Assembly (NCBI GenBank): GCA_900554335.1
Contig: USGT01000007.1
Location: 15,235-79,234 of the forward strand
Direction of reading: 5' to 3'
Length of the DNA: 64,000 bases
Source: an uncultured Oscillospiraceae bacterium
GTDB taxonomy: Bacteria > Bacillota > Clostridia > Oscillospirales > Acutalibacteraceae
The first letter of the stretch is position 1. Each line of letters starts with the position of its first letter. The notes beneath the pieces are model-generated. The model was not told the DNA's origin, made no database searches, and saw nothing but the letters and a program-made list of their open reading frames with translations. The translations under genes were made by a program, and so were the position numbers. Below are positions 480-53,515 of this stretch, in pieces.

Positions 480-735
480 ATTAAACACAAACCATCTGAA
501 TTTAATTTCAGGTGGTTTATTTTTTTCAATTTTATTGTGTTAGAAAATATTTTTCTAGCATTTTTTATTTTTTTAAATCATGTAAATTTAATTTTTATTA
601 ATTGTAAAAAATTTACAAAATTATAAGTAGATTACTGTTAAAGATAATGTTATATATGTATTTAAATTTTATTGAAAAAATGATATAATTAGTATTAACA
701 TAAATTTTAATAATTTAATTTAAAAAGGTGATTTA

Positions 736-1476
736 ATGAAAAAAATTAAAAAAACTATTTCGTTATTTTTAACGTTATTGTTAGTGTTTTTTAACCAACC
801 TGTTTTCGCCGGAGGAAAAGACGGAGTCGAAATTTTAAAAGATGGAACCAAACTGACATGGATTCCAACTGAGAAAATTGAGCAAAAAGCTGAAGAATAC
901 ACCAAAGAATTGGAAGAAATTAAAAAGAAGGAAATTTCTTCTTCGGCAAGGTTTTTGATAGGTTTTGCGGCAACGGCAGCAGGAGTTGCATCAATAGTAG
1001 GGCTTCAATGTGCGAAAAATAAAACGAGCAATCCAGTGCTTTCGTATTTATGTCTTGGAGCTCAAGTTTTGTCTGCTGCCGGAATATTAGCCTCTTACAT
1101 TTGCCCTAAAGTTCATAACCACAATGTTTTTCATGAAATAAAAGGAAATTATGAAAGCACAACGTATAGTCCATCATGCTGCTTGCTTGATTATATGTTA
1201 AATGGCATTAAGCATAGGGATTTATGTGAAACGAATGGAGGTGCAAAAGAAAAAAGTGAGCGTTTAAATGGAATTATTGATTACTATAAATTAATTAATG
1301 GCGATTACAAAAAAGCTTATAAAAATGGAATTGTAGTCGTTGAAAGGCCTAAGGGTTTTAAAACAACACTATTTCATCATGCTTATGGATCAGGTATTTA
1401 TTCTCAGGAAAAATGGGAACGCAACAGTGATTACTACTATAATGTTTTATTAAAACAGAAAAAAGGAGTTAAATAA
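736..1476 (+). CDS. secreted hypothetical protein (signal peptide ...VFA|GGKDGVE, internal hydrophobic segment)
   Basis: GGTGA RBS precedes the ATG. N-terminal signal peptide with AXA-type cleavage site. Its stop lies 2 nt before the next gene's start (translational coupling). N-terminus is paralogous to the next ORF. Confidence 0.6.
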   Translation: MKKIKKTISLFLTLLLVFFNQPVFAGGKDGVEILKDGTKLTWIPTEKIEQKAEEYTKELEEIKKKEISSSARFLIGFAATAAGVASIVGLQCAKNKTSNPVLSYLCLGAQVLSAAGILASYICPKVHNHNVFHEIKGNYESTTYSPSCCLLDYMLNGIKHRDLCETNGGAKEKSERLNGIIDYYKLINGDYKKAYKNGIVVVERPKGFKTTLFHHAYGSGIYSQEKWERNSDYYYNVLLKQKKGVK

Positions 1477-1478
1477 CA

Positions 1479-2744
1479 ATGAAAGTATTAAAAAAATTAA
1501 CATCAGCATTTCTTGCTACAACCCTAATTTTATCTTCTGTTTCAAGCAGCATTTTTGCCGGAGGAGATGGTGTGGAATCTTATAATCCACTTGGCTATGA
1601 TGTTGTAAATTCTTATGTTAAAAAAGAAATAAATCGAATTCAGATGGGAATGACTTCTGAAGACAAATCTTGTATTTATGTAGAGAATATTAAATTACCG
1701 GGTAAGGACAGACGCACCGCTAATGTTTTTCTTATGGGAGCTGTTTTTGGTGCCGATGACCCTGACCAAAATTGTGTTATTCAAAAGTATTTGAAAATTT
1801 TCAAAGAAACTCAAGAAGAAGTTAAACAATCAATAGAAAAAAGTAAAAAATTTAATAAAAAGGCTGCAGAGGCAGCAATAAATGCCGGAGCTAATGTTGC
1901 GAAAAATTTATTACAAAAATATGGAATTAAAAATTTATTAAAAATTTTTCCTAATGGTAAAAATATAAAGATGACTGCAGAAGAATTTAGTGAAATTATT
2001 GCCGCATATATAACTGGTGAGGAATTTTTAAAAGTTTGCAGTGCAGCTGAGGTTATAAGTGTATTTATGGTGATTGGCGGCGCAGCAGGAATTGTAGGAA
2101 CATGTATATCAAGAGGTGGAATAATTGCCGGAGTAGTTACGATTACCAAGGCCGTTCCTACTGTTGTTGCGGTTGTAACGGGTGGTGCTCTAACCGCAAC
2201 AGGTGCAAGTGCAGGAGCTGGAGCAGGGGCTTTGGTCGCAGCAACAGGAACAGCAGCTGCAGCAGCTGAAGGAGGAGCAGCAGCGGCGGGAAGTGCTTTA
2301 GTAGCAGGAGGGGCATTAGCCGCAGCATCGCCTTTGATTGTGCCGGCTTTGGCAATAGGTTCGGTTGTTTTAGTTGCCGGTGGAGCAGCTTTAGGTGGGG
2401 GCGCATATGTAGCTTCATCGCTTGCTTATTCAAAAAAATTAAAAAGTGAAAAATACGAAAATATTTGCGGAGTTATTTCAGGTTTAATAAACATTTTTCA
2501 AGCTAACTATGGTTGTGGTATACTTAAAAATAATTGCCTTGTTATTGCTTTAGACTTAAGAGATCAAAGTGGCTGGAATGTTTTTACTCGTGGAAGAAAA
2601 AATCAAGGTCATTTTGTTGGAACTTATATGTTAAAAGGTATTGCTAATGCGCCTACAGGCGAAGAATATATAAAGCAAAATGGAATTGATTATAAAGCAC
2701 TTTGTGAGAATTATTCTAAATACATAAAAGATAAGACTGCATAG
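1479..2744 (+). CDS. secreted hypothetical protein with ~110-aa Ala/Gly-rich glycine-zipper-like hydrophobic region
   Basis: AGGAG RBS. Signal peptide ...SIFA|GGDGVE resembles the upstream ORF. A GC-rich low-complexity stretch (2100-2410) encodes a long G/A run such as AGAGAGALVAATGTAAAAAEGGAAAAG. Confidence 0.6.
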   Translation: MKVLKKLTSAFLATTLILSSVSSSIFAGGDGVESYNPLGYDVVNSYVKKEINRIQMGMTSEDKSCIYVENIKLPGKDRRTANVFLMGAVFGADDPDQNCVIQKYLKIFKETQEEVKQSIEKSKKFNKKAAEAAINAGANVAKNLLQKYGIKNLLKIFPNGKNIKMTAEEFSEIIAAYITGEEFLKVCSAAEVISVFMVIGGAAGIVGTCISRGGIIAGVVTITKAVPTVVAVVTGGALTATGASAGAGAGALVAATGTAAAAAEGGAAAAGSALVAGGALAAASPLIVPALAIGSVVLVAGGAALGGGAYVASSLAYSKKLKSEKYENICGVISGLINIFQANYGCGILKNNCLVIALDLRDQSGWNVFTRGRKNQGHFVGTYMLKGIANAPTGEEYIKQNGIDYKALCENYSKYIKDKTA

Positions 2745-2794
2745 AAACAAAAAAATTGATTTATTCTCTGAAATTTTATGAAGTATAAATATAT

Positions 2795-2890
2795 TATGGA
2801 AATGAAGTTCTCCCGAGGAATTTTTCCTAAACTGCATTTGCTGATGACTTCTACGATGTGAGTAGGATCATTGGCATTTTATTTTTTTGA
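2795..2890 (+). promoter_or_regulatory. fluoride riboswitch (crcB motif) with terminator-type expression platform
   Basis: GGAAAUGAAGUUCUCC ... UAAACUGC ... GCUGAUGACUUCUAC matches the conserved crcB-motif cores (GGnGAUGnnGUUCnCC / AAAC.GC / CUGAUGAnUCCUAC). A hairpin and U-run follow, directly upstream of crcB. Confidence 0.7.
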
Positions 2891-2901
2891 GGTGATAATT
2901 T

Positions 2902-3231
2902 ATGGTTGATTTTTTGATAGTTGGTTTTGGCGGGTTATAGGCTCGGTGGTAAGATATTTATTCGGTCAAATTCTGATTTTTGCCAGCATAAAATTTCCTA
3001 TTTCTACGCTGCTTATTAATTTTATTGGGTGTTTGCTCATAGGAATAATAAATTCTTTGGCGATTGATTTTAAATTTAAGAGGTTTTACTACGTTTTCTA
3101 CTTTTTCGCTTGAAATAATTAACATGATTGAAACTGGAAAGACATTCTCAGCAATTGTTTACTGCCTGGTAAGTGTTTTGCTTAGTTTGGCCGGGGTGAT
3201 TTTGGGATCTAAAATAATGTTAAATTCTTAA
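2902..3231 (+). pseudogene. crcB: fluoride channel CrcB/Fluc, disrupted by two single-nt frameshifts
   Basis: Three frames together spell a complete CrcB (MVDFLIVGFGGL / GSVVRYLFGQ...FPISTLLINFIGCLLIGII / GFTTFSTFSLE...LAGVILGSKIML). Shifts lie near 2937 (TTATAGG) and 3080 (AAGAGGTTTT). No ORF of 60 aa or more is in the track here. Confidence 0.6.
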
Positions 3232-3333
3232 GTTTTTATTTTGATTTCGGTATTTATTTAATAAAAATAGATTAAAAATTTATTGACTAATTTTCATAAA
3301 AATATTATAATTAAAATAAAGGAGATGTTAAAA

Positions 3334-4473
3334 ATGAAAAGCCTGAAAAAAGTAACTGCATCCATTCTTTCGGTGTTAATTTCTTTTTCCGCTGTTAGTG
3401 AAGCGGCTGAAACTACCGTTGATTCTAACCCAAATTTTTGCTACAAAATAGTTGGCGAAAAAAATGCCGTTTTAACTGAATTTAAATCTTCTAAGCTAAA
3501 AAATCTTTCGGATCCTGAAGGTTACAATATTATTGAAATAGCAGATGATGCAAGCAAAACTGAAGTTTATAATCGCAGCGATGTTATTAATTTTTGGGCG
3601 ACGGTTGTTTTAACAGCCCCTACCATAGTTGTGCCGGCATTTATGTTTGATAATCCTGAAAATCCTCCAAAAGTTGGAAAATTTAAACGAAATAATGTTA
3701 TCTCTGGAATAACTTCTGTAAATTTGCCTCACTGCAAAAGAGTTGGGAAAAGGGCTTTTTCATGTTGCAATAAACTTGAAACTGTCAACCTGCCTGAATG
3801 CACTACCTTGGAAAGAGACAGTTTGATGGGCTGCATTATGGTTAATAAACTTAACGTTCCCAAATGCTTGACTTTGAGTAGTCCTTTTGGAATTTACGGC
3901 AATCATTCTGCAAAAGGAAGCTTGAAAGAGCTAAATGCTGAGCAATGCACGAAAATTGAAAAGGGAAGTTTCAAAGGTTTTATGAAGCTTGAAATTGCGA
4001 ATATCCCAAATGTTACTTATGTCGGAAGTGAATGCTTTGACTATTGCAAATCGCTAAAAGAGCTTGATTTAAACAAATGCAAAATTATTCCCGAAAGATG
4101 TTTCCAAAGATGCTTTGGTTTGAGAACAATTTTGTTGAATTCTTGCACTGAAATTAAGAAAAACGCTTTTAAAAAATGCGAATCACTGCAGAATATGAAC
4201 TTGCCTAATTGCGCCAAAATAGGGCCAGACGCTTTCGAAGGTTGCAAAAATCTGTGTAAATTAAGCGCACCGAAATTAACAAGTATTTCAAAAAACGCTT
4301 TTACCAGTTTGAGCGAAGTTTACATTCCGGCGTGCAAATATGTTGGTGAAGGAACATTTAACAATTGCAGGAATTTAAAGAAAATAACTGTTTCGCGCGA
4401 TTGCAAATTCGAAGGAAGTTCTTTGCCATATGATAAAGTTTTAAATAATGAATTAGAAATTGTTAGAGTATAA
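3334..4473 (+). CDS. BspA-type Cys-rich leucine-rich-repeat surface protein (signal peptide)
   Basis: Consensus promoter TTGACT-16-TATAAT lies upstream and a GGAG RBS precedes the start. Signal peptide followed by ~23-aa repeats of the form LP.C..IG..AF..C..L. Tandem paralog of the next gene. Confidence 0.7.
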   Translation: MKSLKKVTASILSVLISFSAVSEAAETTVDSNPNFCYKIVGEKNAVLTEFKSSKLKNLSDPEGYNIIEIADDASKTEVYNRSDVINFWATVVLTAPTIVVPAFMFDNPENPPKVGKFKRNNVISGITSVNLPHCKRVGKRAFSCCNKLETVNLPECTTLERDSLMGCIMVNKLNVPKCLTLSSPFGIYGNHSAKGSLKELNAEQCTKIEKGSFKGFMKLEIANIPNVTYVGSECFDYCKSLKELDLNKCKIIPERCFQRCFGLRTILLNSCTEIKKNAFKKCESLQNMNLPNCAKIGPDAFEGCKNLCKLSAPKLTSISKNAFTSLSEVYIPACKYVGEGTFNNCRNLKKITVSRDCKFEGSSLPYDKVLNNELEIVRV

Positions 4474-4508
4474 AATTTGGATGAATATATAAATGGAGAA
4501 TACTAAAA

Positions 4509-5660
4509 ATGAGAAGTTTTAAAAAAATAACAGCTGCTGTTCTTTCGGGGCTGATTTCTTTTTCTGCTGTGAGTGCTTTGCCTGAAACTACCGTTGATTC
4601 AAACCCGAATTTTTCTTACAAAATATTAGAGGGAAAAGATATCATTTTAACTGAGATAAAACCTTCTAAACTCGAAACACTTTCAGGCCCGGTTGAAGGG
4701 TATTATAATGTTGTTGAAGTGGCTAATGATGCCAGCAAAGCCAAAATTGTAAAAAATAATTACACTATTTTGGACGCTATTGAATTTTGGGGCATAGTTA
4801 TTGGTTTGGGTTTTACTGTTATAGTCCCAGTGTGCATGCTTAGCAACCCCAATATAAGGCCGGAAATTGGTAAGTTTAAAAATTTTAAATATATTTATTC
4901 AAAAATAACTTCTGTGGATTTGCCGCATTGCAAAAAAGTGGGCAAGAATGCTTTTCTTAGCTGCCAAAATCTAAAAACTGTGAGTTTGCCCAAATGCACT
5001 ATTTTGGAAAAATGCAGTTTAATGAGCTGCCATAATGTTACTAAACTTAATGTTCCTGAGTGTTTGGTTTTGGATAACCCCTTTGGAATTGACACCAGTT
5101 ACTCCATACGCTATGATGCCGGCAAAAAACTTAAAGAGTTAAATGCTCAAAAATGCACCAGGATTGAAGACAGGTGTTTTGGCGGGTTTATGAATTTAGA
5201 AAAATTAAATCTCCCGAATTTAGTTTCTGTTGGGTGCGAAAGTTTTGCGCTTTGCCGTTCTTTGAAAAATGTTTCTTTGAATTCTTGCGCTGAGATTAAA
5301 GAATGTGCTTTCAGGAAGTGCACATCTTTGAAAAATATAGATTTACCTAATTGCAAAAAAATTGGCTGGGGTGCTTTTGAAGGTTGCTGTAAGTTAACTA
5401 AATTTAATGCACCGAATGTAAAGGAAATTGGCGCGAATGCCTTTGGAGCCTTTAGAAATGATCGCGATCAAACGGTGTGGTTTAAGCGCAATAATTTAGA
5501 AGAGGTGTATGTTCCAAGCTGCAGTTATATTGGTGAAAATGCTTTTAGCGATTGCAAAAAACTAAAAAAGATAACAGTTTCGCATAATTGCAAATTTGCA
5601 AAAAATTCCTTGCCATTTGAAAGGGTTTCAAGCAATAAATTAGAAATCATAAGGGTTTAA
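4509..5660 (+). CDS. BspA-type Cys-rich leucine-rich-repeat surface protein (paralog)
   Basis: Same architecture and similar N-terminus (…SFSAVSA.PETTVDSNPNF.YKI…) as the upstream gene. A terminator hairpin follows. Confidence 0.7.
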   Translation: MRSFKKITAAVLSGLISFSAVSALPETTVDSNPNFSYKILEGKDIILTEIKPSKLETLSGPVEGYYNVVEVANDASKAKIVKNNYTILDAIEFWGIVIGLGFTVIVPVCMLSNPNIRPEIGKFKNFKYIYSKITSVDLPHCKKVGKNAFLSCQNLKTVSLPKCTILEKCSLMSCHNVTKLNVPECLVLDNPFGIDTSYSIRYDAGKKLKELNAQKCTRIEDRCFGGFMNLEKLNLPNLVSVGCESFALCRSLKNVSLNSCAEIKECAFRKCTSLKNIDLPNCKKIGWGAFEGCCKLTKFNAPNVKEIGANAFGAFRNDRDQTVWFKRNNLEEVYVPSCSYIGENAFSDCKKLKKITVSHNCKFAKNSLPFERVSSNKLEIIRV

Positions 5661-7645: not shown

Positions 7646-7722
7646 TGGTCCGCCCGGAGGGATTCGAACCCCCGACCTTCAGAATCGGAATCTGCTGCGA
7701 TATCCAGCTTCGCCACGGGCGG
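7646..7722 (-). tRNA. tRNA-Arg (anticodon CCG)
   Basis: The reverse complement folds as a cloverleaf: acceptor CCGCCCG/CGGGCGG, D-stem GCGA/TCGC, anticodon loop TTCCGAT, T-arm GGGGGTTCGAATCCCTC, discriminator A and an encoded CCA. Confidence 0.85.
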
Positions 7723-33625: not shown

Positions 33626-33664
33626 AATAATTTAACCGAATTTTTCGAAAGGAAGTGACTTACT

Positions 33665-34876
33665 ATTAAAATTTTAGTTCTTAATTCAGGAAGTTCCTCG
33701 CTTAAATATCAGCTCATAGACATGAAAGATGAAAAAATTCTTTGCAAGGGCAAATTTGCCGAAATAGGCCAAAATGACACCGAATTTCACCACAAAACAT
33801 TTGAAAATAAAAAAATTTACGAAGATTTCCATGATGTGAAAAACCACGACGATGCTTTTAATCATTTGAAAGAGATTTTAACGAGCAAAGAAAGCGGCGT
33901 TATAAAAAGCATGGATGAAATCGCCGCAATTGGCCACAGAGTGGTTCACGGAGGGGAATATTTCACGGGGCCTGTGATTATTAACGACGAAGTGATTAAA
34001 AAAATCGAGTCGCTCATTCCTCTTGCGCCGCTTCACAACAAAGCAAGCATTTCAGGCATAAAATCCTGCACGAAAATGTTCGGGAATAAAATTCCTCAAG
34101 TTGCAGTTTTCGACACTTCTTATTACTCGAATATTCCTGACTACGCTTTTGTTTACCCGATCCCTTATGAATATTATGAAAAGTGCGGAATCAGAAAATA
34201 TGGTTTCCACGGCACTTCGCATGAATTCGTGAGCAATGCTGTGGCAAAAATTTTAAATAAAAACATAAACGACCTGAAAATCATAAGCTGCCATCTTGGA
34301 AACGGCTCTTCGATAACTGCTATAAAAAACGGCAAAGCAATCGACACAAGCATGGGTTTAACGCCTCTTGGCGGAATCATGATGGGCACTCGCTCTGGTT
34401 CGATGGACCCTTCGGTGATTATAAAAATGGCTGAGGAAAAGTCGCTTTCTTTAGAAGAAATCGGGAATATTCTCAATAAAGAATCCGGGCTTAAGGGCGT
34501 TTCGGGCGTTGGAAGCGACGACAGAGATATTTTAAGAGCTGAAAATAACGGCAACAAAAGAGCGAAGCTTGCGCATGAAATGATGATTTACAAAATAACT
34601 AAGTATATTGGCGGATATATAGCTATTCTTGGCGGTTGCGACGCAATTATATTCACCGGAGGAATTGGCGAGCATCAATGGATGCACCGCGAAAAAATTT
34701 GCAAGCATTTTAAGTTTATGGGCCTTGAGCTTGACGACGAAAAAAATAAAAACGCAAAACTCGGCAAAGAAGAAATTATTTCTAAAAATGATTCTAAAAT
34801 TAAAGTTTTTGTAATTCCAACGAATGAAGAGCTGGCAATTGCAAGGTTTACGCTTGAACTTATAAGTAACAAATAG
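33665..34876 (+). CDS. ackA: acetate kinase (apparent ATT start)
   Basis: The conserved N-terminus (M)KILVLNSGSSSLKYQL begins at an ATT codon 9 nt after GGAAG. An in-frame TGA lies at 33656 and the first ATG (33722) comes after the ATP-binding motif. The rest matches AckA (GHRVVHGGE, LAPLHN, FDT, GFHGTSH). Confidence 0.85.
   Translation: MKILVLNSGSSSLKYQLIDMKDEKILCKGKFAEIGQNDTEFHHKTFENKKIYEDFHDVKNHDDAFNHLKEILTSKESGVIKSMDEIAAIGHRVVHGGEYFTGPVIINDEVIKKIESLIPLAPLHNKASISGIKSCTKMFGNKIPQVAVFDTSYYSNIPDYAFVYPIPYEYYEKCGIRKYGFHGTSHEFVSNAVAKILNKNINDLKIISCHLGNGSSITAIKNGKAIDTSMGLTPLGGIMMGTRSGSMDPSVIIKMAEEKSLSLEEIGNILNKESGLKGVSGVGSDDRDILRAENNGNKRAKLAHEMMIYKITKYIGGYIAILGGCDAIIFTGGIGEHQWMHREKICKHFKFMGLELDDEKNKNAKLGKEEIISKNDSKIKVFVIPTNEELAIARFTLELISNK

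Positions 34877-53438: not shown

Positions 53439-53515
<77 letters not shown>

Follow-up and report, generated by a model that had tools for sequence, protein, structure and literature searches.

Probable recent pseudogenisation of crcB behind a canonical fluoride riboswitch in a gut bacterial species

In the 64-kb stretch of DNA analysed here (the window), a canonical ON-riboswitch for fluoride very probably precedes a crcB gene that became a pseudogene recently and the state of which is polymorphic in the population. The locus would be a fluoride-responsive unit of the standard type, the cargo gene of which was inactivated only recently. Intact, frameshifted and frameshifted-plus-deleted alleles coexist in one species, and the locus offers a small, clean case of gene loss in progress within one gut species, where the regulatory RNA outlives its gene. 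The current understanding of riboswitches and Fluc channels is not challenged by it. Its value lies mainly in quality control and annotation: the interruption of the gene is biological, the lesions are corrected to 1 nt and 26 nt in two reading frames, and the assembly is shown not to be riddled with indels.

The fluoride riboswitch and its expression platform

The aptamer of the fluoride riboswitch (crcB RNA motif, Rfam RF01734) was found on the forward strand at 2789-2860, with a score of 42.9 bits against a gathering cutoff of 34, an E value of 1.4e-8 and coverage of the model from 1 to 64 of 64, and this riboswitch is real. The fluoride riboswitch controlling crcB was described by Baker et al. 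2012, as cited in PMC9484302 and PMC8315801. The core strings of the aptamer that had been picked out in the first-pass annotation are all present, namely GGAAATGAAGTTCTCC at 2798-2813, AAACTGC at 2829-2835 and GCTGATGACTTCTAC at 2840-2854. The window aptamer has both the P1 helix and the pseudoknot joining the P1 loop to the 3' tail. In P1, positions 2798-2801 pair with 2810-2813, and of these four pairs the window has three canonical ones and one A.C; in the pseudoknot, GAAGU at 2804-2808 pairs with ACUUC at 2847-2851, and all five pairs are canonical. The residue-level fit to the RF01734 model was made on the L013 copy, which is identical to the window. As compared to the canonical fluoride riboswitch, the aptamer of this clade contains a 13-nt inserted mini-hairpin after P1 (2817-2819 with 2825-2827), and its second helix is reduced to 2 bp (2834-2835 with 2840-2841); both features are common to relatives with an intact crcB. 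The pseudoknot has been kept through covariation relative to the RF01734 consensus, with GAAGU/ACUUC replacing GGAGU/ACUCC.

The pairing is also conserved in the clade. Over nine clade sequences, 92.9% of the aptamer pair cells were canonical, as against 36-71% when the 3' partners were slid, and the values for the P1 and pseudoknot cells were 83% and 98%, respectively. Three pairs were altered on both sides, and compensatory changes were found in P1. The RF01734 scores of aptamers before an intact crcB were 43.0, 43.6 and 36.2 bits in the more distant relatives L024, L026 and L023, respectively, and 42.3 and 42.0 bits in L014 and L015, which are strains of the same species with the intact allele; the frameshift strains scored 42.9 bits. 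Since the scores are similar across broken and intact loci, the window aptamer matches the quality of those that precede a working crcB.

The expression platform, an intrinsic terminator identified by folding, occupies 2839-2888 of the forward strand and is composed of a 15-bp stem (2839-2854/2862-2876) and a U-tract (2877-2888). The hairpin at 2839-2876 has a minimum free energy of -16.5 kcal/mol (z = -3.9), and only one of 200 shuffled sequences folded equally well. A terminator had been noted here from the first reading of the sequence, and it is indeed present, the hairpin being followed by UUUUAUUUUUUU at 2877-2888; the low G+C content of the stem caused a simple scan for terminators to overlook it. 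In the nine clade sequences, 96.3% of the terminator cells were paired, as against 27-57% for slid partners, and double compensatory changes were absent. The 5' arm of the terminator is the 3' strand of the aptamer (nucleotides 2840-2854), including the pseudoknot strand ACUUC at 2847-2851, and therefore the ligand-bound aptamer and the terminator are mutually exclusive, so that the expression platform competes with the aptamer. To judge from the sequence, this arrangement is the usual one of an ON switch acting on transcription. If it behaves like the fluoride riboswitches that have been characterised, fluoride binding would hold the 3' strand in the aptamer pseudoknot; with the architecture observed here, the terminator would then not form and transcription would continue into crcB. 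A Shine-Dalgarno sequence, GAGGTG at 2889-2894, and the crcB start codon, ATG at 2902-2904, were read on the forward strand (2889-2904) and are kept in all relatives.

The window thus resembles the canonical RF01734 crcB riboswitch in its full-model match above the gathering score, in the overlapping terminator and in the position of crcB immediately downstream. The aptamer lies upstream of a fluoride-toxicity gene, and the crcB homology begins 42 nt past the aptamer, but the gene controlled in the window is a pseudogene.

Lesions of crcB and comparison with Fluc channels

The joined crcB fragments belong to the CRCB family by homology (Pfam PF02537, E = 2.7e-20), and CrcB HMM matches were obtained for the pieces 2910-3110 (E = 4.8e-22) and 3052-3228 (E = 2.8e-22). 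The protein P0003, a member of the same-species allele cluster, is 89% identical. These matches and the translation bear out the earlier reading that an interrupted crcB lies downstream of the riboswitch. Three frames and two separate 1-nt insertions had been proposed to read through the gene; in fact CrcB-like sequence occurs in two frames only, in the order A (2902-2934), B (2937-3077) and A again (3082-3231), and two such insertions therefore cannot restore the reading frame.

All fragments and lesions lie on the forward strand. The first fragment (2902-2940, frame A), delimited by translation and by alignment to the 118-aa orthologs, reads MVDFLIVGFGG, followed by L and a premature stop, TAG at 2938-2940. 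Lesion 1, which was seen in DNA alignments, is a deletion of one nucleotide at 2935-2936 in codon F12, where the window has GGCGGG-TT-ATAGG and the intact alleles have GGCGGG-TTT-ATAGG; it falls after codon 11, shifts the frame from A to B and brings in a stop at codon 13. The second fragment (2937-3079, frame B; translation and HMM) reads IGSVVRYLFGQ...AIDFKF and comprises the remainder of TM1 together with TM2; if frame B were continued, it would stop at 3111-3113. Lesion 2, at the junction 3079|3080, returns the sequence to frame A, and the DNA alignments identify it as a deletion of 26 nt, CTTGTTTTTCAAAATTGGTTTTTGCG, which are present in all relatives. The third fragment (3082-3231, frame A; translation and HMM) reads GFTTFSTFSLE...KIMLNS, contains TM3b and TM4 and ends at the stop TAA at 3229-3231. 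The two deletions, of 1 and 26 nt, add up to 27 nt, and therefore the last fragment returns to the frame of the first. Of the two single-nucleotide deletions supposed at first, the one at lesion 1 was correct and the other has to be replaced by the 26-nt deletion.

Helix TM3a, made up of residues N60-G69 (NLFFKIGFCG), is lost through lesion 2, and the nearest public relatives, of 118 aa, carry NLF(F/L)KIG(I/F)CG exactly at the point where the window switches from frame B to frame A. Because these residues are deleted, a complete CrcB, which had been suggested with a length of about 107 aa, is not obtained by joining the three fragments; they amount to about 108 of 118 aa. A single ORF with four TM helices (about 118-130 aa) is not found in the window, where the longest fragments are 55 aa, nor is TM3a with the glycine-rich break before TTFSTF. 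Neither of the two 55-aa fragments had an exact match on record, and gene callers had not called them.

The Fluc channels are small homodimers of dual topology, in which an arginine is conserved and a sodium ion is buried (PMC8315801). Over its full length, the intact allele of this species, P0121 (118 aa), can be aligned with Fluc-Bpe (E = 5.5e-10), and in comparison with the Fluc channel structures (PDB 5A40 for Fluc-Bpe; 5A43 and 6BX4 for Fluc-Ec2) it keeps the GSVVRY arginine, the TM2 asparagine and the TTFSTFS segment. The deleted NLFFKIGFCG lies opposite RLAAVTGFLG of Fluc-Bpe (5A40), i.e., TM3a up to the glycine before TTFSTF. In contrast to the Fluc channels, the window copy stops at codon 13 and is without the ten residues of TM3a, which makes a four-helix subunit impossible. 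The glycine-rich break of TM3 reportedly contributes to the buried Na+ site in Fluc-Bpe, as found by McIlwain and colleagues in 2020. The predicted products of the window crcB cannot make a Fluc channel.

In the 64-kb window, a CrcB HMM search found no second crcB, and a Pfam scan of the 15 ORFs with a length of 379 aa or more gave no CLC-family protein. A scan of genome contigs with the repaired CrcB gave mostly spurious pattern matches and only distant CrcBs, from Bacteroidaceae, Ignavibacteriaceae and Rickettsiella. The protein P0007, an NCBI CrcB with 60% identity, was considered as a second copy in the same MAG and was rejected because it belongs to a different assembly, GCA_037194205.1. 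The strain is predicted to be without Fluc-mediated fluoride export and should be sensitive to fluoride unless an exporter is encoded beyond the window. If it has no other exporter, natural strains of the species should differ in their fluoride sensitivity.

Alleles, selection and alternative explanations

At 90% identity, the nearest relative falls in a protein cluster of ten members, eight of 103 aa and two of the full length of 118 aa; the 103-aa members are called from an internal GTG that corresponds to window 2946, and in five of these eight the frameshift is deduced from the gene call. At the DNA level, crcB is intact in L014-L018, carries only the 1-nt deletion in L001 and L019-L022, and carries both the 1-nt and the 26-nt deletions in the window, L012 and L013. 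A string search gave the same picture, with GGCGGGTTATAGG, the state of lesion 1, in L001, L012, L013 and L019-L022, and GGCGGGTTTATAGG in L014-L018. The related contigs come from human-gut metagenomes, e.g., the Hadza set, and the organism belongs to the uncultured Clostridia of the gut. The identity of the flanks to the window is 97.4-98.9% in the frameshift strains and 96.0% in L015, which carries the intact allele, and all strains are therefore placed in one species-level group. In the assemblies compared, the crcB state is polymorphic in the species, and some strains keep a riboswitch-crcB unit that is intact as far as its sequence goes. The frameshift would have occurred before the 26-nt deletion, since several other strains share the frameshift; the 26-nt deletion would have followed later, in the window lineage only.

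The window itself is a recombinant mosaic, about 98.5% identical to L015 upstream of the riboswitch and about 99.5% identical to L019 downstream of crcB (2200-5400), and the breakpoint region lies around crcB. The identical CDSs of L014-L018 had raised the idea that the intact allele had undergone a selective sweep or been repaired through recombination; this was discarded, L014 and L015 being 99.6% identical throughout.

The frameshifted alleles no longer exhibit purifying selection on the crcB coding sequence, although the counts are small. Between two frameshifted copies, those of the window and L001, 9 nonsynonymous and 3 synonymous differences were counted, which gives a dN/dS of 0.90 (12 differences, small counts), as compared to 0.19-0.23 in comparisons across the functional lineages, and for the nonsynonymous excess the binomial P against omega = 0.21 is 0.019. 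The segregating sites of the frameshift clade were 12 nonsynonymous and 5 synonymous; the per-site classifier is approximate for codons with three alleles, and the counts between species are rough. The frameshifted alleles also carry radical changes where residues are conserved: G48E replaces a near-invariant glycine, TTFSTF has a T-to-I change, and there is a G-to-E change. Judged by these counts, crcB is drifting neutrally since the frameshift. In the leader, 6 of 118 positions differ between the window and L001, similar to a dS of 0.042. We saw no evidence of special protection of the riboswitch; it probably looks intact because the gene was lost recently and there has been too little time for decay, and not because of a known new purpose.

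A frameshifted gene in a metagenome-assembled genome raises the question of assembly or sequencing indels, which had been offered at first reading as the alternative to a loss of crcB; lesion 1 sits in a short homopolymer, and lesion 2 was seen in no independent sample. The window is 100% identical to the MAG GCA_900772125.1 over 8,744 nt and to the Logan assembly of SRR1761709 over 5,186 nt, both lesions included, and the upstream 421-aa protein is identical in that MAG (contig CAAGQM010000007.1, 134,186 bp) and in the Logan assembly. Evidently, the window belongs to that MAG. Lesion 1 is also found in L001 (ERZ28636797), L019/L020 (ERZ15609929, SRR31227312) and L021/L022 (ERZ28634539, ERR11504622), which come from at least three other metagenomes and other assemblers, differ from the window by SNPs and have an ankyrin-repeat gene upstream of the riboswitch instead. 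Being shared by independently assembled strains, lesion 1 is a real inherited mutation, and an assembly error is rejected for it. Apart from the window, the junction string of lesion 2 is confined to L012 and L013; the deletion is the same in the NCBI MAG and in the Logan assembly, possibly from the reads of one run, neither repeats nor microhomology flank it, and its length exceeds that of a homopolymer error. An assembly error is very unlikely as its cause. JGI metagenomes were scanned for the junction of the deletion and, in either allelic state, for the site of the frameshift; neither scan gave a copy of the species, which is absent from that collection. Neutral evolution and additional damaging substitutions in the frameshifted alleles would not be expected from sequencing errors either, and the further indel supposed in ackA turns out to be an ATT start codon. 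That crcB is intact in the organism is thus extremely improbable; the loss of the gene is supported and the assembly indels are not. A functional channel might still be made part of the time, by programmed ribosomal frameshifting or by phase variation of the T-run, given that the deletions total 27 nt, that the last fragment is in the original frame and that the species holds both TT and TTT alleles in the homopolymer of lesion 1. However, GGC GGG TTA TAG has no slippery heptamer of the X XXY YYZ type, a run of 2-3 nt is far shorter than the known contingency tracts, and TM3a would be absent from the window product even after a perfect correction of the frame. The further inactivating changes and a dN/dS near 1 in the frameshifted alleles also speak against it, and the clustering of the frameshift strains by their flanks (97.4-98.9%, versus 96.0% for L015) fits a single origin better than repeated switching. 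We give this explanation hardly any credence.

The riboswitch could also have been retained to regulate read-through into the genes directly downstream of crcB, two tandem paralogs of the BspA-type leucine-rich-repeat (LRR_5) surface proteins at 3334-4473 and 4509-5660. From the crcB stop to the LRR gene at 3334 there is no predicted terminator (z = -0.65, and the terminator scan was also empty), the distance from crcB to the LRR gene is about 20 nt in the sister species L002 and about 50 nt in L024, so that the pair looks operonic, and the aptamers of the broken strains score as high as those of the intact ones. On the other hand, the LRR gene has a strong promoter-like site of its own at 3283-3311, the leader of the broken alleles diverges at about the synonymous rate, and L002 has lost the 5' half of the aptamer despite an LRR gene directly downstream. 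To our knowledge, no link between fluoride and LRR proteins has been described. Retention for read-through is therefore quite improbable. Only slightly more room is left for a broader proposal, which we regard as a long shot: the sole Fluc of a gut commensal would be a segregating loss-of-function polymorphism with the riboswitch kept, either because fluoride export is conditionally dispensable or costly, or because the orphan riboswitch has been co-opted for the LRR genes via read-through. Recent pseudogenisation of crcB behind a canonical riboswitch is what we consider far more probable, and it has parallels among bacterial pseudogenes with intact upstream signals (PMC522871, PMC9122581), which show the same frameshift and deletion lesions, neutral substitutions, retained promoter and leader and presence/absence polymorphism among strains. 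The crcB locus has nothing distinctive in comparison with these, except that the retained regulator is a riboswitch and that the evidence comes from gut metagenome assemblies. A literature search for a crcB pseudogene behind a fluoride riboswitch gave no specific report, and its one match concerned intact plasmid crcB genes.

Sister species and flanking genes

In the sister species, decay has gone in the opposite direction, as far as the aligned loci tell: the gene is kept and the aptamer is degraded. In L002 (5924-6000) and L004, crcB is intact and the terminator hairpin remains, and the 5' half of the aptamer is lost. In L008 (516-568), crcB is intact, and the aptamer scores 21.9 bits, which is sub-threshold, with GG/CC of P1 changed to AA/UU. 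The sister-species crcB is under purifying selection, with a dN/dS of 0.19.

The promoter-like sequence before the first LRR gene, TTGACT-17-TATAAT, matches at 11 of 12 positions and lies in a spacer that is absent from L002. Upstream of the riboswitch, alternative cassettes are found between the gene of a 3-hydroxyacyl-CoA dehydrogenase and the riboswitch (window 480-2784; L019 6279-7835; L021 8279-9835; L002 5923-6001). The cassette of the window, L014 and L015 consists of two genes without a Pfam match, encoding a protein of 246 aa and a secreted Gly/Ala-rich protein of 421 aa; that of the frameshift strains consists of a 518-aa ankyrin-repeat gene, and the sister species have nothing at this place. 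The homology between strains resumes exactly at window 2784.

An indel had also been suspected at the start of ackA. The listed start of this gene is ATG 33722 (region 33650-33724), and the resulting 384-aa call forms a singleton protein cluster. When read from an ATT at 33665, which lies 9 nt downstream of the Shine-Dalgarno sequence AGGAAG, the canonical N-terminus, IKILVLNSGSSSLKYQ / IKILVLNSGSSSLKYQLID, is in frame, so that no indel is present; this codon is a rare ATT start, or else the start codon has mutated from ATG to ATT. The remaining features that were recognised in the window are ordinary housekeeping features: a bacterial small SRP RNA on the reverse strand at 16221-16319 (Rfam, 61 bits), tRNA genes at 7649-7722 on the reverse strand and at 53439-53512 on the forward strand (both Rfam), and Ffh on the reverse strand at 60144-61496.
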